Below, one piece after another: positions 2,505-62,063 of a stretch of DNA of 64,000 nt. Below the pieces are notes generated by a model. It had not been told where the DNA came from, did not search any database, and saw nothing but the letters and a program-made list of their open reading frames with translations. Origin of the DNA: a bacterium (lineage in GTDB: Bacteria > Patescibacteriota > UBA1384 > VFKW01). The first letter of the stretch is position 1, and the number at the start of each line of letters is the position of its first letter. The translations under genes and the position numbers were made by a program. The stretch lies in assembly GCA_030647355.1 (NCBI GenBank), contig JAUSIS010000013.1, positions 48,353 to 112,352 on the forward strand. Direction: 5' to 3'.

Positions 2505-3923
2505 CTATCCCTTGCCGCCTATTCTCAAAAACAACGGCTTCGGCTCTAAACTCTCCAATTGCCGGTTAATTTCCTTGCTCGTTTCAGGCATAAACGGTAT
2601 CAAACATTTACTTATGACCCTCATATAGTTATGAATAATATTTAATATCTCTGCACATTTTTTCGGATTTTTCTCAGCCAAATCCCACGGCTTATTATTC
2701 TCAATCAACTTATTAAGCCATTGTACTATTGCATTAATTTTAGTAAGCGCTAACACAAAATCCATCTCTTCAATTGCCATATTTACAATCCCGACTAATT
2801 CAATATCTTCATAATCACCTTTTGGTTTAATGTTTACTCTATATTTATTAATCATAGTCAAAGTTCTCTGCAGTAAATTCCCCAGATCATTTGCCAGATC
2901 AGCATTATATGTCTGGGTCATTCTCTCCCAAGAAAAATCACCATCTTTGTCAAAAGACAACTCCTTCAAAAGTAAATAACGAGTCGCCTCTTTGCCATAT
3001 CTCTCAATCATATCCGAAGCCTTTACCACATTTCCCAGCGTCTTAGACATTTTCTGTCCGTCAACTGAAATAAAACCATGCACATAGATTTTCTTTGGCA
3101 ATTGATCATTTTCATAGCCAGCCGCCATCAACATTGCCGGCCACAGCGCCGCATGAAAACGCAAAATATCCTTCCCGATAATATGTAAATCGGCCGGCCA
3201 GTACTTCTTTGGATACAAATAATTAGTTAGGGCGTCAAACCACACATACATCACATGCATTGGATCATTGGGCACTTCGATCCCCCAATTCAGCTTTTCT
3301 TTCGGCCGGGAAATACTAACATCTTCCAATCCGCTTTTCAGCAAACTCTTAACCTCATTGAATCGGAAATCCGGCTGAACAAATGTTGGATTATCTTTAT
3401 ATAATTTCTCTAACTTCTCCTGAAAAGCCGCCAGCTTAAAAAACCAATTCTCTTCTTCGACAATCTCGGGAATTAAATTTGGATGATTGGGACATCGCTC
3501 ATTAACTAACTCGCTTTTGTTCTTCATCATCTCGCAGCCAACGCAGTACACCCCCGAATAAAACTTTTTATATATATAGCCGTTTTCCAATGCCTTAGAC
3601 CAAATTTCTCGCGCGTTCTTCTTGTGCTCCTCGCTGGTCGTTCGAATAAAATAATCATAGGTAAGGTTCAGCTGCACCTTAAGATCCAAATATTTCTCAA
3701 TCAGCTTATCAACAAATTTCTTTGGCTCCATTTTCGCTTTAACGGCATTCATCTGCACACTAAACCCGTGTTCGTCAGCACCCGTCAAGAAAAAAGTATC
3801 ATCTTTCAGCACATCCCGATGATATCTAGCCACTACATCAGTCGCCAAAATCTCCTGACCATACCCGATATGCGGCTCGGCATTGATATAAGCAATTGAA
3901 TTGGTAACATAAAACTTCTTCAT
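2505..3923 (-). CDS. metG: methionyl-tRNA synthetase (short form)
   Basis: Class I synthetase HIGH-type motif (PHIGYGQE) and KMSKS motif (KMSKTLGNVV), with a Cys-rich zinc knuckle CVGCEMMKNK...CPNH. Confidence 0.9.
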   Translation of the reverse strand: MKKFYVTNSIAYINAEPHIGYGQEILATDVVARYHRDVLKDDTFFLTGADEHGFSVQMNAVKAKMEPKKFVDKLIEKYLDLKVQLNLTYDYFIRTTSEEHKKNAREIWSKALENGYIYKKFYSGVYCVGCEMMKNKSELVNERCPNHPNLIPEIVEEENWFFKLAAFQEKLEKLYKDNPTFVQPDFRFNEVKSLLKSGLEDVSISRPKEKLNWGIEVPNDPMHVMYVWFDALTNYLYPKKYWPADLHIIGKDILRFHAALWPAMLMAAGYENDQLPKKIYVHGFISVDGQKMSKTLGNVVKASDMIERYGKEATRYLLLKELSFDKDGDFSWERMTQTYNADLANDLGNLLQRTLTMINKYRVNIKPKGDYEDIELVGIVNMAIEEMDFVLALTKINAIVQWLNKLIENNKPWDLAEKNPKKCAEILNIIHNYMRVISKCLIPFMPETSKEINRQLESLEPKPLFLRIGGKG

Positions 3924-12591: not shown

Positions 12592-12624
12592 AAAAAACTG
12601 GCCGGGCGGCCAGTTTTTATTTAT
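12592..12624 (+). terminator. rho-independent terminator
   Basis: Hairpin ctggccg-ggc-ggccag followed by tttttatttat. Confidence 0.5.
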
Positions 12625-12636
12625 CCATCGGGATCT

Positions 12637-12654
12637 ATCCGCCAGCTAGCGGAT
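12637..12654. repeat. palindrome family member (atccgccagctagcggat)
   Basis: 18-bp perfect palindrome with a gctagc centre, a variant of the ccgccagctggcgg family. It lies inside the 5' leader of the 12708 ORF. Confidence 0.5.
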
Positions 12655-12707
12655 CGGATCTCGACGAGATGAATAACCTTAATAATCAATCCCGCGGAGG
12701 AAAACGA

Positions 12708-13181
12708 ATGTCAACAGCCAGAACCAATACGAATCAGACAATTTTCCAAAAAGACGGGCAAACAGTCGCCGTTCTAGGAGAATTGGATCCAGAAACAACT
12801 CTGATCTACTGCCTTCCGTCTGCCGAATCTGTCCCCGCTCAAGTAGAAGATAACCCGAAGCTAGTTCTCGCCCCTGTCTTCCGCCCCATTCCTCACATCG
12901 AGCCGAAAGCATATGCTCGCCAAACCGAGGGCATAGTTCTTCTCCCTCTCAAAGTCGGCAATTACCAACTCAAAACCGTCGCCATCGAGCTCAGCCCGTC
13001 CTTAACCTCGCTTCCACCCCACCTCATCTTCGATGGCTACGACCACCCCAGGGGTAAAGACGGTCAAGTTTTCCGCCTGACCAGTCAATCAATCACTATT
13101 TTCAGCCTGAGAATCCACTGCGCCGTGGGTGAACGCCCAGTCTACCGACTTGAAGAAAAAAAGGAGGATACATCATGCTAA
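12708..13181 (+). CDS. hypothetical protein (GC-rich island ORF 2)
   Basis: ATG at 12708 preceded by ggagg at 6 nt. The upstream in-frame ATG at 12669 lacks an RBS. About 55% GC codon usage, unlike neighbouring genes. No recognisable domain. Confidence 0.45.
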   Translation: MSTARTNTNQTIFQKDGQTVAVLGELDPETTLIYCLPSAESVPAQVEDNPKLVLAPVFRPIPHIEPKAYARQTEGIVLLPLKVGNYQLKTVAIELSPSLTSLPPHLIFDGYDHPRGKDGQVFRLTSQSITIFSLRIHCAVGERPVYRLEEKKEDTSC

Positions 13182-13429
13182 CCAGTCAGGCAAATACCGA
13201 TACCAGCATTCCCCCCGAGGTCAGCTCCAAAGTCCATGAACTAAGTGTTCAATTCGCTCGTCTCTGCTCTTCCGACGACCCCCAAAGCCCAGCCAAACTA
13301 GTTGAGTCGCTGCGCGAGATAGTCCAGATCGCCGACGAATACCCCCAAGCCACGCCTGCAATCGCCAGGGCTCTCTGGCAATCCTGCCATCGCCCAACTA
13401 GAGCCGGCTGGGGAGGAAGCCCTCGCTGA
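13175..13429 (+). CDS. hypothetical protein (GC-rich island ORF 3)
   Basis: ATG preceded by aaggagga. Overlaps the upstream ORF by 7 nt, suggesting translational coupling. Followed by a terminator. Confidence 0.45.
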   Translation: MLTSQANTDTSIPPEVSSKVHELSVQFARLCSSDDPQSPAKLVESLREIVQIADEYPQATPAIARALWQSCHRPTRAGWGGSPR

Positions 13430-13461
13430 AGTCCTCTATCCAACTAACCCCCGCCCAGCTT

Positions 13462-13496
13462 TTCATCAAAGGGCTGGGCTTTTTTCATACAAAACA
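13462..13496 (+). terminator. rho-independent terminator
   Basis: Hairpin gcccagc-ttttcatcaaagg-gctgggc followed by tttttt. Confidence 0.55.
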
Positions 13497-13790
13497 AAAA
13501 GCGCGAAGTCGAATTGTCAGCCTAATAATATTTTAAATTAATGCTGTTCGTCGCGCTCTTTGTTTAATGAGACTACACTCCCTAGAATAACATGTCGTTA
13601 GCCTAAGAAGTCATCCCCCTCCTTACTTAGTAAGGAAAGGATAAACCAAATCACTTGGACTATCCCTTCATCACTACTTTTGTAAATGTTCCTTTTCAGT
13701 GAATTAAGATATCATATCAATACAGCAACCCCATGTCAACACCACCAGCTAACCAAACATTCAACCTTATAAAAATAAAACCTGCCTAAG

Positions 13791-13828
13791 TTATCCACAG
13801 GCAGTCATTACAGAAATAGTTATCCACA
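13791..13828. promoter_or_regulatory. two consensus DnaA boxes (TTATCCACA) 21 bp apart
   Basis: ttatccaca at 13791-13799 and 13820-13828. They lie in an AT-rich 350-bp spacer just 3' of dnaB. The palindrome tccgccagctggcgga follows at 13835-13850. Confidence 0.4.
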
Positions 13829-13853
13829 GTCAATCCGCCAGCTGGCGGACCGA

Positions 13854-15233
13854 CTATCCGCTTGCTGAAATTTTCCTGTGATCCAAATTGCCAAACTTCG
13901 TCTGTTCAGGAATAAAATAGAGCTTAATATCACCGATCGGACCATTACGATGTTTACGTACTAAAATATCTGCAATATTCTTATTTTCCGTTTCTTTATT
14001 GTAATAATCCTCGCGATAAATGAACATAACCACATCCGCATCCTGCTCGATACTTCCGCTCTCCCGCAAATCGGATAACTGAGGAATCTTTCTATCCCTC
14101 TGCTCCACTGCCCTTGATAACTGCGACAGAGCAACTACCGGAATATTCAATTCTCTGGCTAGTGCCTTCAGTGATCGGGAAATCTCCGATACTTCCTGGA
14201 CACGATTAGCATCATTCCCGTGAGAGCTTCGCCCCTCCATTAGTTGCAAATAATCAATAATTACCAAACCCAACCCGTGCTCAACCTGTAGCCGACGCGC
14301 CTTAGCCCGTATCTCCATAACCGAAAGCATCGGCGAATCATCAATAAATATTGGCGCTTCTGCCAGCTCTCCCATCGCTTCTCCGATTTTTCTAAAATCA
14401 TCCTCTGCTAGCTCCCCTTTTCTAAGCCTCCAGGAATCAACCCCCGCCTGCATACAAAGCAACCGATCCACTATCTGATCTCTTGACTGCTCCAATGAAA
14501 ACAAACCCACTGGCACCTTATGCTTAACCGCCGCATATTCAGCAATATTCAAAACAAAGCTGGTTTTACCCATACTGGGACGAGCAGCAATTATGACTAA
14601 ATCTGATTTTTGTAATCCGGATATCAATCCATCTAACTCCTTAAACCCTGTCGGTACACCCCTTAAAGTACCTTTATTTTTATGCAACTCGTCTATTCTA
14701 TCAAATGACTCCTCGAGTACCGATTTTATAGGAACAAAATTATCACTGGTAAATTTCTGGCTGATTGAAAATATAGTGCTTTCCGCTTTATCCAAAACCT
14801 CGGCAATATCGGCAGTTTCATTAAATCCCAGCTCAATTATTGTCGAAGACGCATGTATTAGTCGTCGAAGTGTTGCTTTATGACGAACGATCTCCGCATA
14901 CTTGGCAACATGCGCCGAAGAAGGTACTCCATTAACCAGCGAGGACAGGTACGCCGCTCCTCCTACTTCTTTCAGTTTTTTTCTTGTCTCCAGTTCATTC
15001 GTCAGAGTTACCAAATCAATTGGCGATCTTTTTTCAAATAAAACCAACATAATTTCATAAATCAACTTATGGTCATCACGGTAAAAATTCTCGCTATTCA
15101 AAATGTCCACTACTTTCAATATAGCGTCTTTGTCCAGTAAGATTGCCCCAAGAACTGACTGTTCTGCCTCAATATTTTGGGGGGGGATTTTAGAAGGCAG
15201 CTCGCTTTTCGCCACTAATCCTCCAAGCGTCAA
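13854..15233 (-). CDS. dnaB: replicative DNA helicase
   Basis: N-terminal PQNIEAEQSVLGAILLD. Walker A ARPSMGKTSF. Motifs typical of DnaB (SLEQSRDQI, GLVIIDYLQLM). Confidence 0.9.
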   Translation of the reverse strand: MTLGGLVAKSELPSKIPPQNIEAEQSVLGAILLDKDAILKVVDILNSENFYRDDHKLIYEIMLVLFEKRSPIDLVTLTNELETRKKLKEVGGAAYLSSLVNGVPSSAHVAKYAEIVRHKATLRRLIHASSTIIELGFNETADIAEVLDKAESTIFSISQKFTSDNFVPIKSVLEESFDRIDELHKNKGTLRGVPTGFKELDGLISGLQKSDLVIIAARPSMGKTSFVLNIAEYAAVKHKVPVGLFSLEQSRDQIVDRLLCMQAGVDSWRLRKGELAEDDFRKIGEAMGELAEAPIFIDDSPMLSVMEIRAKARRLQVEHGLGLVIIDYLQLMEGRSSHGNDANRVQEVSEISRSLKALARELNIPVVALSQLSRAVEQRDRKIPQLSDLRESGSIEQDADVVMFIYREDYYNKETENKNIADILVRKHRNGPIGDIKLYFIPEQTKFGNLDHRKISASG

Positions 15234-34628: not shown

Positions 34629-36032
34629 GTGACCTGCACCCATTATAGCGGCAACAGAAGGCCAATAATAATCCTCTTTAGAAAATTCCCTACTGCAGTA
34701 TTTTATTATTATGCTACAATTAAACGGATGGAAACAAACAAACACACTCTAAAATCCCAAATAAATATCGAACGCATCGGCTGGCTTATCGGTCTGGCGC
34801 TTTTACTGTACCTACCCAACCTGTACCCGGCGCAATTCTCCAAAATGACTGAACTTGCCTACACGGGATTAATACTTTCAACTGCCCTGCTTTATTATTA
34901 CCTCGCCTACAATCTTCTTCGCATAACAAAAAGTTGCTACGCCAAAAATATCGGCGACATCCTGTTCCTAAATTCGCTCCTCTTCCTTGCAATCCAAACA
35001 AAATCCTATATCGCGCTCATCCTCATAATTCCTATCGCCGGTTCGTTATTGATCCTAAACAGAATCAACGGTTTGATCGTCGCCGCCTCTGCCATAATCC
35101 TGGTTGGGCTGGAAATTTTTGTTGAAAATAATAACAACATTACACTCTACTTCGACCCGGTCTATGTTCTGATTGTTTTGGCAGTTATTATCACTTTCTA
35201 TATGAGAATACTTGCCCAAAAAGCGCATTATGAACACCTCGTGAGACAGGAGGAAGAAAGTAAATTAGCCGAAATCAACATAAAATTATCCAACTTAGAA
35301 CACCAAGGCAAAGAATTCACGACTTTGGCAGCCAGACAAATCTCAACACCGCTTGCCACTATCCAAAGCTTCGTCCAAACACTTTCAAGCGAGAAAGACG
35401 GACATCTAAACGACAAACAAAAAGTATTTATCAAAGAGACTGCCAATTACATCGAAAAAATGCATGGTCTGATATCCGAACTGCTTTATATAACAAAGGT
35501 CGAATTCAGCCCACCCCCCGAGCTTCGACCAATGGACATTTTAGACACCACCAAAGAGGTCATCAAGAAATTTGAACCCTATCTTAAAGAAAAAAACACC
35601 GAGATAAAACTAAAATATCCTAACAATGACATGCCTAACATAAAAGCCGATAAGAATTACCTGCCGGAAATACTCAATAGATTAATTGACAACGCTATAA
35701 AATATTCACCCGATAAATCACCGATAGAAATCGTCCTGCAAATCGTTCACAAAGACAATAAACCGTACCTAAGTCTAGACATCTCCGATCGTGGACTTGG
35801 CATTCCCAATGAAGAGCAAAAATATTTGTTTCACAAATTCTTTCGCGGTAGCAATATAATTGATACTGAAATACCCGGCAACGGACTAAGTTTGTATGTA
35901 GTAAAGCTCTTAGCCGACAAACAAAACTGTAAAATTGATTTTAAATCAAAAACTGATGAAGGGACATCGTTTCTATTAGATTTCCCGCTGGAAAAAAGTG
36001 ACGCAAAAAAAGGCGGCTCCAGCCGCCAATAA
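34629..36032 (+). CDS. membrane sensor histidine kinase
   Basis: About 6 N-terminal TM helices. HisKA H-box region, then HATPase_c N and G boxes (DRGLGIP, GNGLSLYVVK). The start codon is uncertain; the alternative is M at about 34728. Confidence 0.75.
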   Translation: MTCTHYSGNRRPIIILFRKFPTAVFYYYATIKRMETNKHTLKSQINIERIGWLIGLALLLYLPNLYPAQFSKMTELAYTGLILSTALLYYYLAYNLLRITKSCYAKNIGDILFLNSLLFLAIQTKSYIALILIIPIAGSLLILNRINGLIVAASAIILVGLEIFVENNNNITLYFDPVYVLIVLAVIITFYMRILAQKAHYEHLVRQEEESKLAEINIKLSNLEHQGKEFTTLAARQISTPLATIQSFVQTLSSEKDGHLNDKQKVFIKETANYIEKMHGLISELLYITKVEFSPPPELRPMDILDTTKEVIKKFEPYLKEKNTEIKLKYPNNDMPNIKADKNYLPEILNRLIDNAIKYSPDKSPIEIVLQIVHKDNKPYLSLDISDRGLGIPNEEQKYLFHKFFRGSNIIDTEIPGNGLSLYVVKLLADKQNCKIDFKSKTDEGTSFLLDFPLEKSDAKKGGSSRQ

Positions 36033-36039
36033 GCATTGA

Positions 36040-36327
36040 TCATTCCAGCACATAGTCGGGACTCGGGTCTTCTATCAGACCCATTCGCCTAGCCTGGTTA
36101 CCAGTTTGCTCAAAGCGCTGTTTGGCAAACTCGTCACACTTAGGACATACTTTGAGATGCTCCTCAACTATCTCATAGTGATTGCGAGGAATTTGCTGGC
36201 CCTTTGCCATGTCAGCAATTACCTCTCGCACCTGTTGGCACGATATCGCAGCGACGTCGGGCAAATCCTGGCTCGGAGCATAACATTGAGGATACTTATG
36301 ATCCCCATCATGCTGTCTTGTACTCAT
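36040..36327 (-). CDS. small zf-HC2 (anti-sigma-factor-like zinc finger) protein
   Basis: ISCQQVREVIADMA...EEHLKVCPKCDEF contains the H-x3-C-x2-C motif of ZAS-type anti-sigma factors. No cognate ECF sigma gene nearby. Confidence 0.45.
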   Translation of the reverse strand: MSTRQHDGDHKYPQCYAPSQDLPDVAAISCQQVREVIADMAKGQQIPRNHYEIVEEHLKVCPKCDEFAKQRFEQTGNQARRMGLIEDPSPDYVLE

Positions 36328-36411
36328 GGCACCCCCTTCTTCACGAGTATTCGGACGAATAATTATTCCCTATCATACATCGAACAGCCAAAAAGTCAAG
36401 TACTCCAGCTA

Positions 36412-37707
36412 TCAAAAGTTTACTTCATACTGTCGTCGTATACAAAGCAATGAAAAAATCACCGCAAGAAACGCAAATATATTTCCCAGATAAAAACCGG
36501 CTGATGTCTCATTAATATTACTGACACCCGCCACTGTGGGAGCAACCTCGCTACCTTCTGTACCACTATCATTAGTCAGAGAATCACCTCGCGGTAACTC
36601 GGACGTAATCGCCCCATTCGCTCTTGACACAATTACTCTACCCTCTAAATTTGGCGACTTTGACGACCGTGTTGCTCGTTTTACAGCCCCCGAACCGGAA
36701 CCCGTACCTTGAGACATACCGACTATAGTGTCTTGATCGCTGCTATCTAGCTTCTCCTGAAGCGCCTTTACCCCGGCAATAAATGCCGCTTGAGATGTAG
36801 CGCTGGAATCAATCCTCCAGTCTGTCTCTTTGTTCATATTAAACCAGGTAAAACCGGAAACTCTGGTATATTTTGAAGCTAGTTTATCAAACATGTCCAA
36901 AATCCAACTCGCCTTGTCACCCCCCAATTCTGTCGAGCCGATTTCCGTAATAAAAATATTTTTACTAGAAAGTGCTACTAAATCATTATAAGAAGAGTCA
37001 AAAACCTCCTCAAAAGTTTGCCATACAGACTGCCATTCCTCCGTCTTTTGGCTCGTCCCCCAGTTATAGCCCTCTAGTCCAACATAATCAACATAATCGT
37101 CACCCGGATAAAGTTCGCCATAGGAATATCTTTCAAGCGAATGATGAACATTAGGCGCCCAAATCCATTGTACTTGATTGGCGCCAATAGCATCAAATTT
37201 TTCGATAACATAGCGCCAAAACAACTTATGATTTTCCGGGGTATTACCATTTTTACCAATTTCCCAAGACGGCCATCCATAACCGTTCATTTCTGGAGCG
37301 AGAGAAATGCGGATAGGAAAATTAAGGGCTTTGACGCTCAGGGCAAAATTATTAATATAAGTATCATATTTACCAGATGTAACGTCGGTATTAATAACAC
37401 CGGTGCCATTTATTTGCGGCTGCCATGTCAAATCGGGAATAGCCCCATGATCATGAAACCGTCCGACAATTCCCATATCCAAACTATCCGACCAATCCAA
37501 ATAAAATCGAGTTGATATAAATTTTATACCCAAATCCTTCTCGAAATTATCCAATACCGCAATATCATCGGTAGACCCGGGCATAAAAATATTCAGTTCC
37601 ACTTTCCGTTTCTCCTCGGCCTTCGAAATACCAATCGAACACCCGGCCACCAGCAGTATACTTAGAGCAACAACCCTCCATTTTGACATTAAACCCTCCA
37701 AAGTCAT
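36412..37707 (-). CDS. GH26-family (beta-mannanase-like) glycoside hydrolase lipoprotein with a C-terminal TM anchor
   Basis: Signal peptide plus lipobox LLVAGCS. Catalytic-region motifs LAPEMNGYGWPSW and WIWAPN resemble GH26 (HEMN...W). An S/G-rich linker and a C-terminal hydrophobic helix follow. Confidence 0.55.
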   Translation of the reverse strand: MTLEGLMSKWRVVALSILLVAGCSIGISKAEEKRKVELNIFMPGSTDDIAVLDNFEKDLGIKFISTRFYLDWSDSLDMGIVGRFHDHGAIPDLTWQPQINGTGVINTDVTSGKYDTYINNFALSVKALNFPIRISLAPEMNGYGWPSWEIGKNGNTPENHKLFWRYVIEKFDAIGANQVQWIWAPNVHHSLERYSYGELYPGDDYVDYVGLEGYNWGTSQKTEEWQSVWQTFEEVFDSSYNDLVALSSKNIFITEIGSTELGGDKASWILDMFDKLASKYTRVSGFTWFNMNKETDWRIDSSATSQAAFIAGVKALQEKLDSSDQDTIVGMSQGTGSGSGAVKRATRSSKSPNLEGRVIVSRANGAITSELPRGDSLTNDSGTEGSEVAPTVAGVSNINETSAGFYLGNIFAFLAVIFSLLCIRRQYEVNF

Positions 37708-37761
37708 TTCCCCTAATACTGCTGATATATAGGAAATGCCTCACTTTGTCAAATTTACAAT

Positions 37762-38802
37762 CTATGTGTCAACTTGATAACGGGTAACACTCTGCCAATC
37801 TAACTCTTTTTTAGCAAAAACAGACCGGAAAAACCCTAGGAGATTCATTGATAAATTTATCAAATACAATAAAGGGAATAGCGGAATATAAAGCATCGCC
37901 CAAAATTGGCGCTCAAGACTTATCATTATTGACGAAGTAATAATCAGCGAAACATACATCCAAAGCAAAACTCGAAGCACCATTTGAGGATAAACAATAA
38001 TTAAGGCGATGGACAAAGCAAGAGCAATATAATCCGAGAGCATAATATACAATTCGAGACCTATTCGCGAATATGATCTGTATAGTTTATGAAGAACTAC
38101 ATTCTGCCAAAACCCGGTGTACCAACGGAGGACCTGTCGGCAATAATCCCTTAAGGTTAATGGATCTTGCGTAACCACCTTGGCCTTAGGAGCATATATC
38201 ACCTTTCCTAACTTCTTTGTGTGGATTTGAAGAGTCAAATCAAAATCCTCCGTCAGAGTGCGTCCGGAAAAATCGAGGTTCGATAATACATCACTTCTGT
38301 ATAAAGATGCGCAACCAGGCGCTACCAATATAGTTCCCATTTTATCCTGAGCATTTTTAAAAACCCTATGTGTAAAACTATATTCATAAGTTCTAAAAGC
38401 ACTTACCAAACCCTTGCGATCACTCGTTACCGTTCCTACTATACAGGCCGGTTTCAAGTCAATAAACTTTTTTATTTCTTCGTAAAAATTACTCGACAAA
38501 CGACTATCGGCATCGGAAAACAGAATATACCGATATCGTTCGAGTAATTTTTTTGATTTTATCAGCCGATCAAGCGCCCGCGCCTTGCCTACCCTTCCCG
38601 TTAAGCTAAGGACATTTACATTTTGTGATTTTGCCAAGCTGGCAGTCCTATCAGTAGAACCATCGCTAACAACGTAAATGTGTTCTTTGCGCACGATGCG
38701 CTTCAATGCGCAGATAGATGAATCAATGACCTTCTCTTCGTTAAGGGCAGGGATGGCAACGCAGAAATCTGCTCTAGGCATTATGTCGTAGAACGCGCGC
38801 AA
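37762..38802 (-). CDS. family 2 glycosyltransferase with C-terminal TM helices (processive synthase-like)
   Basis: GT-A motifs VSDGSTDRT and FSDADSRL (DxD). 3-4 C-terminal TM helices, as in IcaA/PgaC-type synthases. Confidence 0.75.
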   Translation of the reverse strand: MRAFYDIMPRADFCVAIPALNEEKVIDSSICALKRIVRKEHIYVVSDGSTDRTASLAKSQNVNVLSLTGRVGKARALDRLIKSKKLLERYRYILFSDADSRLSSNFYEEIKKFIDLKPACIVGTVTSDRKGLVSAFRTYEYSFTHRVFKNAQDKMGTILVAPGCASLYRSDVLSNLDFSGRTLTEDFDLTLQIHTKKLGKVIYAPKAKVVTQDPLTLRDYCRQVLRWYTGFWQNVVLHKLYRSYSRIGLELYIMLSDYIALALSIALIIVYPQMVLRVLLWMYVSLIITSSIMISLERQFWAMLYIPLFPLLYLINLSMNLLGFFRSVFAKKELDWQSVTRYQVDT

Positions 38803-39076
38803 ATCGAACAGCTAAGCTGACAACATACAATGCAGCTACCACTAGTAAGTGGATGACAAAACTTGGACCGGCAACTGGTAGAGTATACATACCTATTCCT
38901 TTCTATAAAAAATAAGGAGGCGTTAGTCCTCCTTACTGGGTTGGCAACAGTATAAAACAATACCTGCCACAAGTCAACAGTTAATATCTACAAAAAAATT
39001 CATAATATATTAAATTAATGCCGATTATAAACTAATACCAATTGACTAATCTACCAAAATAAGGTAGCATCTGGTT

Positions 39077-40759
39077 ATGAAAAAAATTTCTTTAATTCTA
39101 ATTCCAGTATTAATCCTCATATTGTTGGCAAGTCGCCATGACAGCAAAGTTAGCCCGGATTCCTCCAACTTAATCAACAATCCCTCAGTCGAATCGATTA
39201 ACAAAATCACCAATAAACCAAATAATTGGAGTTCCGATAGCTGGGGCGAGAATCAGACAAAATTTACTTACGACAAAAAGAAATCCCAAGACGGGAAGAA
39301 TAGTCTTAAGGTAGAGATCGCTAAATACACAGACGGAGATGCAAAATGGCTATCCAAACCAATTCCGGTATTTTCGGATAAAGAATATAATTTTTCAAAT
39401 TATTACAAAAGTTCTGTTCCTACCGACACGGTAGTAAGATTTACCGATGACCATAATCAGATCACTTACAAAACCTTGGGAACTAACCCTCCCTCAAACA
39501 GCTGGAAGAAAATAAATTATACAATTAAAACGCCTCTGAATACTACTGAATTGACAGTCTTTCAAATAATAGGGTCTGTCGGATTCCTTCAAACTGATAG
39601 CTACAGTTTGAAGTATGCAACTGTTCCAATTATCACTAACAACATACCTAACAACTCTTTAGAACAAGCTTCTAATGAAAATAGCAATCTGCCCCTCGCA
39701 TGGCAGACAAATAATAATGGAGCTAACTCTGCCAAATTCACTTATCTAAAAGACGGCCATAATGGAGGCCGTAGCGTCAAAACACAAATCACCGGCTACA
39801 CAGGCGGAGACGCCAAATGGCACTATACACCTCAACCAATAGAGCCGGAAGCATCTTACCGATTTACAGACCTTTATAAGTCAAATATACAAAGCGAAGT
39901 CATCGTCGCTTTTACCCAAGACGATGAATCAACGATCTATCAATCATTAAAAAATGCCCCTGCCTCCTCTAGCTGGAATGAATATTCAGATATGATTACC
40001 ACTCCGGTCGGCAGTCAAGAAGTTACTGTCTATCATCTCATTGCTGGTATAGGATATCTCATTACGGATGATTATTCGTTAATCCCTGTATCCGTCCCGG
40101 GATTCAATCGAGCAATAGTGACGCTTACCTTTGATGACGGTTTCGAATCGGTCTACAAGAACGGTCTGCCGCTCATGAAAAAGTATGACATATCATCCAC
40201 TCAATATATAATTTCAAATATGATAAACGAACCGAATTATATGAGTAAAAGCCAAATAGCTAGATTGCAATCTAATGGTCATGAGATAGGTTCTCATACC
40301 AAAAGCCACGCTGATCTTACCAGCTTAACACTAAATGATCTGAAAAATGAACTGGCTCAGTCCAAAATCGATTTAGAAAGAAAATTCAACTCAATTACTA
40401 ATCTTGCCATTCCCTATGGAGCTCATAACGACCAAGTCATAACCCAGACCAAACAATATTATCGCTCAGCGAGAACAACGGACACCGGTTATAATTCAAT
40501 CACTACTTTCAATCCCTATCAACTTAGAATCCAGGAGGTCAACAACTCCACAACTCCTCAAGAGATCGCAAGCTGGGTTGATAAGGCGATACAAGATAAA
40601 GTTTGGCTAATCATCCTATACCACAGAATAGAAGACAAAGGTGGCCTATTTAGCACAACCCCTAAAATCTTCGAAGAAAATCTAAGTTATATAAAAACAA
40701 GCGATGTAAAAACAGCTACTCTCAACCAAGCACTAGATGAGCTGACACCCCAACTTTAA
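39077..40759 (+). CDS. secreted polysaccharide deacetylase (CE4/NodB) with two N-terminal carbohydrate-binding-like repeats
   Basis: Signal peptide. Two repeats of about 170 aa (WSSDSWGENQTKFTY.. and WQTNNNGANSAKFTY..). NodB motifs TFDDGFES and HEIGSHTKSH. Confidence 0.8.
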   Translation: MKKISLILIPVLILILLASRHDSKVSPDSSNLINNPSVESINKITNKPNNWSSDSWGENQTKFTYDKKKSQDGKNSLKVEIAKYTDGDAKWLSKPIPVFSDKEYNFSNYYKSSVPTDTVVRFTDDHNQITYKTLGTNPPSNSWKKINYTIKTPLNTTELTVFQIIGSVGFLQTDSYSLKYATVPIITNNIPNNSLEQASNENSNLPLAWQTNNNGANSAKFTYLKDGHNGGRSVKTQITGYTGGDAKWHYTPQPIEPEASYRFTDLYKSNIQSEVIVAFTQDDESTIYQSLKNAPASSSWNEYSDMITTPVGSQEVTVYHLIAGIGYLITDDYSLIPVSVPGFNRAIVTLTFDDGFESVYKNGLPLMKKYDISSTQYIISNMINEPNYMSKSQIARLQSNGHEIGSHTKSHADLTSLTLNDLKNELAQSKIDLERKFNSITNLAIPYGAHNDQVITQTKQYYRSARTTDTGYNSITTFNPYQLRIQEVNNSTTPQEIASWVDKAIQDKVWLIILYHRIEDKGGLFSTTPKIFEENLSYIKTSDVKTATLNQALDELTPQL

Positions 40760-40771
40760 AGAAGTTATAAA

Positions 40772-40801
40772 CAAAAAAACGCCTGCCAGGCGTTTTTTTG
40801 A
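40772..40801. terminator. bidirectional rho-independent terminator
   Basis: aaaaaaacgcctg-cca-ggcgtttttttg, a symmetric A-run/T-run hairpin. Confidence 0.6.
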
Positions 40802-41089
40802 TCTGGCACCGCCAACGGGAGTCCTCCTCACCTGTCATTCCACTGTGCTGCGGCACCCCGGGCGTTCACATCTCACGCCCGTCGCATATGTGCTCGTTAT
40901 TCCTCGCATACGACCCTTCGGAGACTGGGTTCCTCGCTTACGCTCCGCTAAAATCACTCGCCTTTGTCGGCCGTCTCCAGCTTTGCCGGAGAATCAGGGC
41001 GGCCTGACGTAAGATGAATTCGGCTCCGCCGATCTATATAAATGACGAACATCCACTGGATGCGTTCGGGTTCGCTTCGACTCCCGGAT
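40802..41089 (-). other. GC-rich (about 60%) 290-bp segment between the tRNA-Glu terminator and a duplicated tRNA 3' fragment; candidate ncRNA or integration scar
   Basis: 40808-40823 (accgccaacgggagtc) duplicates the T-stem and acceptor 3' strand of tRNA-Glu at 41126-41197. On the minus strand the segment ends ...ctcccgttggcggtGCCA, an encoded CCA, directly before the terminator. No convincing ORF. Confidence 0.3.
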
Positions 41090-41122
41090 AAATATAAAAT
41101 GACCACACGGGTCATTTTATAT
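41090..41122 (-). terminator. rho-independent terminator following tRNA-Glu
   Basis: aaaatgacc-acacg-ggtcatttt. Confidence 0.5.
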
Positions 41123-41125
41123 TTG

Positions 41126-41197
41126 TACCGCCAACGGGAGTCGAACCCGTATTACAAGGTTGAGAACCTTGCGTCCTAACCGCTAGACGATGGCGGC
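41126..41197 (-). tRNA. tRNA-Glu (anticodon CUC)
   Basis: Manual fold: acceptor GCCGCCA/TGGCGGT, D-arm GTCT-AGCGGTTA-GGAC, anticodon arm CAAGG-TTCTCAA-CCTTG, T-arm ACGGG-TTCGACT-CCCGT, discriminator A. CCA is not encoded. Confidence 0.75.
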
Positions 41198-41253
41198 ATA
41201 AAATCCTCGGCTGTTTCAGCCGATTAAAAACCAACATTCCCTAAACTGAAAAT

Positions 41254-41634
41254 CTAGCTCTTAACAGAAAAATATTCATCAATTATCTCAATAATCTTTT
41301 GAGGAGTAACTTCTGTCTTTAAAAGAAAATCAATAACATGCGGTTGAGCGTCTTTGCGGTAATTGAAATGATCATAAGCAGTTAATACCAGTATAGGAAT
41401 CTCCTTCAGCATCGGGTTGCTCTTCAATATCCTGATAACCTGTATCCCGCCTTGCTTAGGGAGCATCAAATCTAAAAGTATCAGATCCGGCGTTTCCCCT
41501 ATTGCTTTCACAACTGCCTTTTCCCCGTCCTCTGCCGTTACAACCTTATATCCAGCTTTTTCTAACCTTATTTTATATAATCGAAGCAACTCGCTGTCAT
41601 CTTCGACAACTAATATTTTCCGGAAGAATTTCAT
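41254..41634 (-). CDS. single-domain response regulator (CheY-like receiver)
   Basis: ILVVEDDSELL...LLDLMLPKQGG...VLTAY. Confidence 0.8.
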   Translation of the reverse strand: MKFFRKILVVEDDSELLRLYKIRLEKAGYKVVTAEDGEKAVVKAIGETPDLILLDLMLPKQGGIQVIRILKSNPMLKEIPILVLTAYDHFNYRKDAQPHVIDFLLKTEVTPQKIIEIIDEYFSVKS

Positions 41635-57544: not shown

Positions 57545-57679
57545 ACCGATAAACCGACCCTCACTATTAGACTCATTTCGAACCGCTAAAAAAATAGCAA
57601 TTCACAGATTGGAAGTACGCAAAATCGGACTTATCGTCCAACTTGGCTCCGAGACTAGGATTTTCACCCCTCACTTTCA

Positions 57680-57753
57680 TGGCTGCCGGACTAGGACTCG
57701 AACCTAGATTAACAGGACCAGAACCTGTCGTCCTACCGTTAGACGATCCGGCA
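57680..57753 (-). tRNA. tRNA-Gln (anticodon CUG), CCA encoded
   Basis: Manual fold: U1:A72 acceptor UGCCGGA/UCCGGCA, G73 discriminator, D-arm GTCT-AACGGTA-GGAC, anticodon loop TTCTGGT, T-arm CTAGG-TTCGAGT-CCTAG. U1:A72 plus G73 are classic Gln identity features. Confidence 0.8.
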
Positions 57754-57773
57754 AAATATAAAGTGAGGGGCAG

Positions 57774-57824
57774 ACCTAGGTTCCAAGGTCCAGAACCTTG
57801 TGTCCTACCGCTAGACGATCCCGG
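57774..57824 (-). pseudogene. truncated tRNA-Gln(CUG) duplicate (5' two-thirds only)
   Basis: CCGGGATCGTCTAGCGGTAGGACACAAGGTTCTGGACCTTGGAACCTAGGT matches the acceptor 5' strand, D-arm and anticodon arm of the adjacent tRNA-Gln, then diverges with no T-arm or acceptor 3' strand. Confidence 0.45.
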
Positions 57825-57886
57825 ATTACATTAATTATTATACCTGCAAATCAGATAACTGTAAATAATAATAAATGAGATACGGG

Positions 57887-61589: not shown

Positions 61590-61870
61590 GATTTACCCCC
61601 CTCCCTTACCACTTATACTTGGCTTGCGGTGGTTACGGCAGCGACTGCCGTCTCCACGATCTTTATCACGTGACCCATATTGCCTCTGATCTTGGGCCCG
61701 ATTCCAAACGTTCGCTCGGCCGCTGTGCTCAGATGCACTTCCACCTCCCCTGTCCGGCCACTCACCAGACGCACCGCTTTGCACACCCCGCCACTGCCAA
61801 GCTCTTTTCCTAACCGTGACCTCAGAATCGCCAAGTCTACTTGTCTCAATCCATGCCTCCCTGCGCGAGT
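61590..61870. other. GC-rich (about 55%) island between rpmA and rplS; candidate structured RNA or foreign/KH-like small ORF
   Basis: Open frames in 5 of 6 frames, typical of GC-rich RNA genes in AT-rich genomes. The 93-aa minus ORF (61613-61894) has a weak KhpA/KH-like pattern (HLSTAAERTFGIGPKIRG). Unresolved. Confidence 0.2.
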
Positions 61871-62063
61871 AATCTCTATTGCTGTCTTATGCAATAGGCA
61901 AAAGAAGCTAAAACTAGCATCTTTTGTCTAATGCAAAAGCAGATTCAATGTACAACAAAATAATGTTCCCATAATATCCCGAAATACGCTTCTTGTCAAT
62001 ATCGTTACCCTCTAAAACCAAAAAATCCCTCTCAGGATTTTTTGTGCTAGAAATTCAAAATAT

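Follow-up and report, generated by a model that had tools for sequence, protein, structure and literature searches.

The 3′ external transcribed spacers (3′ETS) of transfer RNA (tRNA) operons act as regulatory RNAs or sponges, e.g. 3′ETS-leuZ in E. coli, and cis-mobilizable or miniature integrative elements are known as remnants flanked by attachment (att) sites that lack a recombinase of their own. When mobile DNA integrates into tRNA genes, the standard product is a whole gene on one side of the insert with only part of it repeated on the far side (PMC9897764), and attB cores in the T-loop are documented for phage Ms6 (PMC1762012). Here we describe a segment directly behind the tRNA-Glu(CUC) gene in a 64-kb stretch of bacterial DNA, which was analyzed as a whole and is called the window below. 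The segment is rich in guanine and cytosine (GC), contains no credible open reading frame (ORF) and carries at its far end a direct copy of the tRNA gene's 3′ end. With about an even chance it is the ORF-less remnant, or a non-autonomous element, left by an insertion into the 3′ part of tRNA-Glu(CUC). It does not encode any of the RNAs described so far.

On the minus strand, the response-regulator (RR) gene is followed by tRNA-Glu(CUC), an AT-rich palindrome (T1), the GC-rich stretch, the distal copy of a 16-nt repeat, G-CCA, a second palindrome (T2) and the end of the convergent polysaccharide deacetylase gene (Table 1). The intact tRNA gene has an acceptor stem termed type A here (GCCGCCA/UGGCGGU) with discriminator A and no encoded CCA; CAAAUAU follows. 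The 16-mer GACTCCCGTTGGCGGT (minus strand) occurs exactly twice in the window, from T-loop nt 57 to acceptor nt 72 of the tRNA and at the distal site 319 nt downstream, with 0.18 matches at ≤3 mismatches expected in the shuffled window. Between the copies lies a gene-free stretch of ~320 bp. Their flanks differ, the intact tRNA being followed by A-CAA and the distal copy by G-CCA. Both the exact repeat of the T-stem and acceptor 3′ strand and the G-CCA on the minus strand had been recognized in a first-pass annotation of this DNA and could be confirmed. An 11-nt inverted copy of T-loop and T-stem at 41076-41086 had been overlooked. It renders the two ends of the segment complementary: P1a (CGGGAGUC, 41079-41086), the first 8 nt of the inverted T-arm piece, is complementary to GACUCCCG in both repeat copies.

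With a GC content of 0.569 at 40824-41083 and of 0.60 at 40800-40999, compared to a mean of 0.412 (standard deviation 0.052) for 260-nt windows, the segment is the second most GC-rich 260-nt stretch of the window. The GC-richness claimed in the first-pass annotation therefore stands (57-60%); the "38% GC genome" does not match the 41% of the window. Of the two intrinsic terminators it had placed at the flanks, T2 is a canonical bidirectional one, common to the segment and the convergent deacetylase gene, and the perfect palindrome T1 is a hairpin or weak terminator. A simple terminator scan listed neither. An assembly artefact is ruled out by two independent Logan contigs from the same sample with one junction each and by the same layout in two unrelated samples. 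The Logan contigs L001 and L002 from the source sample (SRR13727527) both stop inside the segment and leave 26 nt uncovered (window 40986-41013). Near its end L002 differs from the window by one base, which may reflect strain variation or low coverage of the GC-rich core.

Table 1. Features of the tRNA-Glu locus, in window positions and in the order of the minus strand.
Feature	Position	Strand	Basis or remark
Response-regulator (RR) gene	41254-41634	minus	
tRNA-Glu(CUC), intact	41125-41197 (start 41125/6 by caller)	minus	ARAGORN; Rfam tRNA 64.8 bits
Proximal copy of the 16-nt repeat, GACUCCCGUUGGCGGU	41127-41142	minus	T-loop nt 57-60, T-stem 3′ strand and acceptor 3′ strand
T1, AT-rich perfect palindrome of 15 bp adjoining tRNA-Glu	41090-41124 (arms 41090-41104/41110-41124)	none	Repeat scan
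Inverted T-arm-like piece, CGGGAGUCGAAGCGAACCCG	41067-41086	minus	Repeat scan, minimum free energy fold, three-genome pair counts
Block 1, 37 nt (CGGGA...GAAGCGAACCCGARCGCRUCCAGUGGAUG)	41050-41086	minus	Comparison with L025
GC-rich core, no ORF, no Rfam match	40824-41078	minus	
Distal copy of the 16-nt repeat	40808-40823	minus	40816-40823 is P1b (pairs with P1a); 40808-40815 is the acceptor 3′ strand copy
G-CCA (discriminator and encoded CCA) after the distal copy	40804-40807	minus	
T2, 14-bp GC-cored palindrome flanked by A- and T-runs	40772-40800 (arms 40772-40785/40787-40800)	both	Repeat scan

Similar to the attL/attR pairs of tyrosine-integrase elements (Ms6 in tRNA-Ala; genomic islands), the locus shows an intact tRNA gene and a direct partial 3′ copy, a repeat that runs from the T-loop to the gene end, incoming DNA that would have given the gene a new 3′ end, and relatives with empty sites. 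In contrast to those systems, only ~300 bp without integrase or ORF lie between the repeats, an inverted T-arm copy is found inside the insert, and the core shows conservation between genomes in which it occupies the same locus. The Ms6 core has 26 bp, whereas the identity block of the segment begins at nt 57 and does not cover the whole T-arm. The segment resembles cis-mobilizable elements in that att-like direct repeats delimit it at a tRNA gene and that it lacks a recombinase, but it is far smaller than the described ones, and no integrase-bearing parent was found in the collections searched. Six-frame translation of 40800-41130 gave only composition-driven open frames and no credible protein.

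Relatives were found via the RR protein. Ten orthologues with 63-81% identity were obtained on contigs that keep the order IscS-NifU-SOD-60aa-RR-tRNA-Glu, and the ten related syntenic loci were fetched (fetched loci are numbered with the prefix L). All belong to uncultured Patescibacteria-like bacteria. The module, i.e. the segment and its homologues, is present in three loci, namely the window, L025 and L015, and absent from six of the ten (L019, L020, L021, L022, L016-18 and L024), where blastn detected no core remnants. In L025 (RR 76% identical) the tRNA ends in ...GAGUCCCGUUGAGGCU-A-CAAU, followed by a long hairpin, CGGGACGAGAAGCGAACCCGAGCGCGUCCAGUGGAUG..., a core of ~110 nt in total and a second GAGUCCCGUUGAGGCUACAAU, of which 21 nt are identical to the first copy and which is followed by a terminator very like T2 without a CCA. 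In L015 (RR 70% identical) ACAAAUAU and a hairpin ending in UUUUAUAUUU, as in the window, follow the tRNA; GGGAUUCGAACC, ~90 more nt of core and GAAUCCCGUUGAGGCC-A-CCA complete the module. The modules extend over 40804-41089 in the window (minus strand), 953-1091 in L025 and 4585-4698 in L015. Compared to ~110 nt in both relatives, the core of the window measures 255 nt. It shares homology with the L015 core in its 5′ half and with L025 in parts; about 90-150 nt are window-specific, including an internal 13-nt near-repeat (40900-40912 / 40930-40942).

Among the module-less loci, L022 exhibits the tRNA type of the window directly followed by A-CCA and a T2-like terminator. It looks like the empty tRNA-Glu site that the first-pass annotation had proposed to look for in related genomes. 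T2 itself resembles both this terminator after the L022 tRNA-Glu and the one after the distal copy in L025. The tRNA-Glu genes of L016-18 end in G-CCA and that of L024 in A-CCA. In L023, a decayed tRNA-Glu and a GIY-YIG gene precede an intact tRNA-Glu, and the L026 contig stops before the tRNA. The 5′ half of tRNA-Glu has exact matches in metagenome-assembled genomes (MAGs) of Peregrinibacteria/Patescibacteria, and none of the loci found in this way contains the segment. In a neighbour-joining tree of the RR protein, L015 and L025 are placed at the base of the ingroup and the window beside L022. Resolution is low because the RR protein is short, but the topology fits one old insertion followed by losses. 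As a separate observation, the T-loop of L022 (1640-1650, Logan SRR30230058) reads UCCGACU, with C for the near-universal U at position 55, where the insert of the window begins.

From these comparisons we infer an integration. DNA would have entered at T-loop position 56/57 of tRNA-Glu and supplied its own tRNA nt 57-72 (with A73, without CCA) together with hairpin T1, leaving the tRNA gene whole and pushing the original 3′ end (nt 57-72, G73, CCA, T2) ~320 bp downstream. The result would be the attL/attR layout of a T-loop-type site-specific integration, with the intervening DNA as a remnant or non-autonomous element without recombinase. Most simply, the distal copy would be the original 3′ end, since an encoded CCA is usual in this group (tRNA-Gln in the window; tRNA-Glu in L011, L013, L016-18, L022 and L024), since G-CCA and an L022-like terminator stand at this site, and since the working gene carries A-CAA. 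The event would be old, and the module would have been inherited by a small clade of uncultured Patescibacteria-like bacteria, resized by lineage and lost in most of them. Two types of loss can be envisaged: a precise one via the repeats, leading to the L022 state, and a deletion of everything to the right of T1, leading to the state of L019-L021 with A-CAA. A precisely emptied site in the window would have ...GGGTTC joined to GACTCCCGTTGGCGGTGCCAGATC, and the circle junction of a mobile module would read ...GGTGAGGAG-GACTCCCGTTGGCGGT-ACAAATAT. If the segment is transcribed at all, the transcript would be a read-through trailer of tRNA-Glu ending at T2, with paired ends. The integration scar suggested in the first-pass annotation is borne out as to the tRNA 3′-end geometry and the module-less relatives, L022 included; it is not a fresh and featureless scar, given the homologous modules, the 37-nt block and a closing helix.

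Several observations weigh against an old integration. No integrase, transposase, homing endonuclease or recombinase was found between the repeats or among the ~50 window ORFs scanned with Pfam, and the phage, plasmid and IMG/VR searches revealed no episomal or viral copy. In the module-less L019, L020 and L021, tRNA-Glu is followed by A-CAA and a terminator, which a simple integration model does not predict, and the distal copy of L025 is flanked by A-CAA, not CCA. The T1 of the window resembles that of L015. Since A-CAA and a T1-like terminator also occur in the module-less L019-L021, and since the L015 T1 aligns with the terminator of L019, the proximal flank may be native rather than foreign. 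Furthermore, the distal copy always agrees with its local tRNA in acceptor type: the window has type A (GCCGCCA/UGGCGGU), L025 and L015 have type B (GGCCUCA/UGAGGCU, UGAGGCU/C), the two types differing by three base-pair flips. One old event would thus require selection, insertion more than once, or gene conversion acting on a tract of 16 nt that has next to no homology at its flanks. Conservation is seen in block 1 and T2, within intergenic DNA that otherwise cannot be aligned; block 1 is identical to L025 956-992 in 32 of its 37 positions. The window has G-C, L025 C-G and L015 U-A as the pair at T-loop nt 59 in P1, the helix of P1a with the distal copy. Together, the conservation of block 1 and the retained pairing of P1 suggest selection, which is unexpected of a dead scar.

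Such selection would be understood if the segment was a functional non-coding RNA from the tRNA-Glu trailer, co-transcribed past T1, ending at T2 and closed by P1, a reading we consider possible, though clearly short of probable. For (pre-)tRNA-Glu, or for a factor with affinity to the tRNA 3′ end, the trailer RNA could be a pairing partner, a competitor or a titrating sponge, as its tail equals the acceptor 3′ strand of the tRNA and its 5′ end is complementary to the tRNA T-loop and T-stem. In all three carriers the module starts with the inverted T-loop/T-stem copy P1a, whose pairing partner is the distal copy, and the minimum free energy (MFE) fold is closed by P1; across the three genomes 22 of 24 cells are paired, with three different Watson-Crick pairs at nt 59. 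However, the score for P1 covariation was reached in 96 of 500 shuffles and the covariation measures overall were equalled or beaten in 96-179 of 500, so that with three sequences the covariation is suggestive only. Beyond P1, internal helices gave no reliable alignment among the three modules. The MFE of the window segment is -104.9 kcal/mol on the minus strand (z = -1.3 compared to shuffles) and -96.2 kcal/mol on the plus strand, and that of L025 is -50.3 kcal/mol in sense (z = -1.15) and -41.7 kcal/mol in antisense orientation. The sense fold is hence favored by 8-9 kcal/mol, which speaks for an RNA, whereas the z-scores, including -2.3 for L015, are weak and the fold stability exceeds that of shuffles only weakly. 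In the hairpin of block 1, CAUCC-AGU-GGAUG is changed to CGUCC..GGAUG in L025, by which an A-U pair becomes G·U on the tRNA strand, again in favor of the sense orientation.

The same trailer RNA would account for the layout kept at one locus in three genomes with RR proteins only 68-74% identical, for block 1 as an island in unalignable DNA, for a distal copy that tracks the local acceptor type, and for the retention of this DNA in small and gene-dense host genomes. On the other hand, the module is lost in most relatives, the closest ones included, the cores differ strongly in length and sequence, and a consensus scan found no promoter-like site for an independent transcript. An inverted T-arm copy that pairs with a direct copy could also arise at the DNA level alone. 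The first-pass annotation had regarded the same segment with conserved structure in relatives as the mark of a native RNA gene; two homologous modules with retained helix pairing do exist, but six of the ten loci are without one. Similar to 3′ETS-leuZ, the segment is same-strand non-coding DNA directly after a tRNA with an intrinsic terminator at its end, and by analogy it might be released during tRNA processing. It differs in carrying the tRNA's own 3′ end along with its complement and in its much greater length (~290 nt).

That the segment is instead a divergent member of a known structured RNA class, i.e. tmRNA (transfer-messenger RNA), RNase P RNA, signal recognition particle RNA, 6S RNA, a T-loop group I intron or an IscB/TnpB guide RNA, is scarcely probable. 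In its favor, the GC-rich segment stands out from an AT-rich genome, its end is formed by a tRNA 3′ strand with CCA and a terminator behind it, and the 16-nt repeat is as long as an IscB/TnpB guide. The covariance-model check proposed in the first-pass annotation (tmRNA, RNase P and other Rfam models) yielded nothing but tRNAs: no other family reached the gathering threshold, none appeared at E≤10 in an 800-nt slice (40600-41400), and the relatives gave no match at E≤1 besides tRNAs. ARAGORN found two tRNAs and no tmRNA in the window. Within the limits of Rfam 15 and ARAGORN these classes are refuted. The likeness to tmRNA (ssrA) consists in a GC-rich stretch of ~300 nt with, at its end, the 3′ strands of T-stem and acceptor, one base, CCA and a terminator. 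Unlike tmRNA, the segment has no 5′ acceptor strand, no T-arm and no tag frame, and its 3′ end is that of tRNA-Glu; the absence of a tmRNA T-arm and tag frame had already been reported correctly. No tmRNA-clan match appeared at E≤10. Position 70 in the acceptor 3′ strand UGGCGGU is G, which leaves no G3·U70, and a tRNA-like 5′ partner is lacking. The sole internal near-complement of UGGCGGU is GCCGCC (~40999-41004), whose pairing would cross P1, and neither sequence nor fold contains a T-stem 5′ strand 7 nt upstream of CCCGU. Since nothing pairs with UGGCGGU in a tRNA-like manner, no T-arm exists and the CCA is missing in L025 (A-CAA), the small RNA with a tRNA-like acceptor end that the first-pass annotation had offered as an alternative is not supported. 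A housekeeping RNA such as tmRNA is also excluded by the absence of the segment from most relatives, six of the ten syntenic loci fetched.

A group I intron core needs at least about 200 nt, and the DNA between the repeat copies of L025 and L015, about 150-190 nt, is too short for it. A T-loop intron was further rejected because no match of the Intron_gpI type was found at E≤10 and because size and boundaries do not fit: a copy of the 3′ exon already stands at the start of the would-be intron. The window and L025 have C at position -1 and G as the last base, but U in L015. The tmRNA T-loop is a known site of group I introns, some with C at position -1 (bioRxiv 10.1101/2020.01.27.920355). Guide RNAs of IscB/TnpB (omega RNA/reRNA) and CRISPR-associated transposons were rejected as well, with no nuclease or transposon gene nearby and no Rfam match; the gene neighbours of the segment are the polysaccharide deacetylase and the response regulator.

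Further copies of the segment were found neither in the window nor in any fetched locus (blastn, tblastx, nhmmer), and phage and plasmid collections contained no match. Pattern scans of IMG/VR with the 16-mer and block 1 returned chance-level matches in unrelated coding DNA only. A metagenome scan with a 20-mer beside the distal repeat gave one chance match in a coding region. The phage, plasmid, IMG/VR and metagenome searches all depend on near-exact matches and are a weak test. A search of the genome collection based on the deacetylase found no relatives; the best other homologue of this protein in NCBI is only 49% identical.

Insertions were also observed in other tRNA genes. In the window, a tRNA-Gln(CUG) with encoded G-CCA (57680-57753, minus strand) is nested in the T-loop of a second, different tRNA-Gln(CUG) (region 57645-57826). 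The 5′ part of the outer gene lies at ~57826-57774 and its 3′ part, GAAAAUCCUAGUCUCGGAGCCA, at ~57665-57644, and an inverted repeat of 12 bp, GCCCCTCACTTT / AAAGTGAGGGGT, encloses the inner gene. ARAGORN and Rfam detect the inner gene only; once the insert is deleted in silico, the outer one is called as tRNA-Gln(ctg) by ARAGORN. In L012 (3132-3320; JAHIMV010000045.1, a Patescibacteria MAG) a complete tRNA-Glu(CUC), framed by the 10-bp inverted repeats CCCCGTATAC / GTATACGGGG, interrupts another Glu/Gln-like tRNA in its anticodon loop, and the outer gene again becomes callable after removal of the insert. A lone tRNA 3′ half directly follows tRNA-Glu in L010 (4583-4608). Evidently, small insertions frequently target tRNA genes in this group. 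At the syntenic spot itself, L023 (2776-3147, Logan SRR22387951) contains the decayed tRNA-Glu (GGCCTCATCGT, a 29-nt GC-rich insertion, D-loop and T-loop remnants), and the GIY-YIG endonuclease ORF (2841-3095) between it and the intact tRNA-Glu makes the arrangement look like an endonuclease-linked replacement of the tRNA gene. In L016 (2886-3929, GCA_964482785.1), the 60-aa ORF and RR are separated by a transposase gene of the rve family (IS481-like), which is missing in the otherwise identical L018. To judge from the GIY-YIG and rve genes, mobile DNA has a hotspot at this locus in relatives, in keeping with the integration reading.

In this context, the segment could belong to an active or recent non-autonomous element that targets tRNA T-loops, with P1a as a guide or recognition arm matching the target and an enzyme encoded elsewhere; we consider this unlikely. 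The features that do not fit a dead scar would support such an element as well as a trailer RNA. With every insertion, the stretch of the target between nt 57 and the gene end would be doubled. The perfect direct repeats matching the local tRNA in type-A and type-B hosts (16 nt in the window, 21 nt in L025) agree with this, as does P1a, which tracks the local T-loop nt 59. The tRNA-Gln of the window likewise has a foreign T-loop insert with 12-bp inverted repeats and a similar purine-rich right end (AAAGTGAGGGGT before GA vs ACAGGTGAGGAG before GA), and nested or fragmented tRNA genes recur in L012, L010 and L023. Against a mobile element of this kind, each genome sampled has one copy, whose syntenic position never varies; the window yielded no recombinase and the viral, phage and plasmid collections no copy, and no known transposition mechanism yields target duplications of 16-21 bp. 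The parts common to window and L015 (T1, core 5′ half) and to window and L025 (block 1, T2) fit common descent.

The repeat might also stem from a tandem duplicate of tRNA-Glu that decayed to a pseudo-tRNA with expansions and whose 3′ end was kept identical by gene conversion, which is very improbable. Short resemblances in L025 to the D-arm (CGUCCAGUGGAU-GGA vs CGUCUAGUGGUUAGGA) and the anticodon arm (partly by eye) would fit such an origin, as would a GC content equal to that of tRNA genes. In a collinear alignment, however, tRNA nt 1-56 matched the cores no better than shuffled cores (z = -0.5, +1.1 and -1.6), and no tRNA match in the core was obtained at E≤10 on either strand. The place of the acceptor 5′ strand is occupied by the inverted T-arm piece. 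A decayed second tRNA in the core was therefore rejected, the alignment being no better than shuffles in forward or inverted orientation.

Beyond the distal repeat, the window contains ~4.7 kb of polysaccharide genes (36040-40759: GH26, GT2, the deacetylase and a 95-aa ORF). The histidine-kinase gene of the window (34629-36032) has orthologues in L017, L019 and L020 that lie convergent just after tRNA-Glu, whereas in the window the ~4.7 kb intervene. A further repeat copy bounding this block was not found. The most GC-rich part of the window (up to 0.60) is 12620-13860, with two ORFs without Pfam matches (12669-13181 and 13175-13429). It is bracketed by the near-identical palindromes ATCCGCCAGCTAGCGGAT (~12637) and ATCCGCCAGCTGGCGGAC (~13834) and may be a small foreign island beside dnaB. 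A third GC-rich patch (61613-61894, minus strand) seemed non-coding at first but contains a 93-aa ORF between the genes of the ribosomal proteins L19 and L27. Going by the ORF translations, from which all three labels are taken, we assume that this ORF may encode Prp, the protease responsible for processing L27.

Partial, att-like duplications of tRNA genes are themselves known. New here is one that is tiny and ORF-less, with pairing ends and a conserved block. There is a small chance that it represents an undescribed class of small ORF-less elements in Patescibacteria (Candidate Phyla Radiation, CPR) that home to tRNA T-loops, with P1a as guide and the gene repaired by a carried or copied 3′ end. 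Under this homing reading, the nested tRNA-Gln of the window would be a product of the same T-loop-directed mechanism. In a related reading, the RNA with paired ends would be a functional trailer that binds tRNA-Glu. If the segment is only a remnant, tRNA 3′ fragments and CCA-less tRNA genes in Patescibacteria would mark old insertions, and GC-rich intergenic islands beside tRNAs need comparative support before they are annotated as RNA genes. If the conserved block and the pairing ends are functional, they would point to a new tRNA-linked RNA or to a new way in which tiny mobile DNA targets tRNA genes where they are most conserved. Taken with the nested tRNA genes, this would raise the question of how reduced bacteria keep interrupted tRNA genes working.

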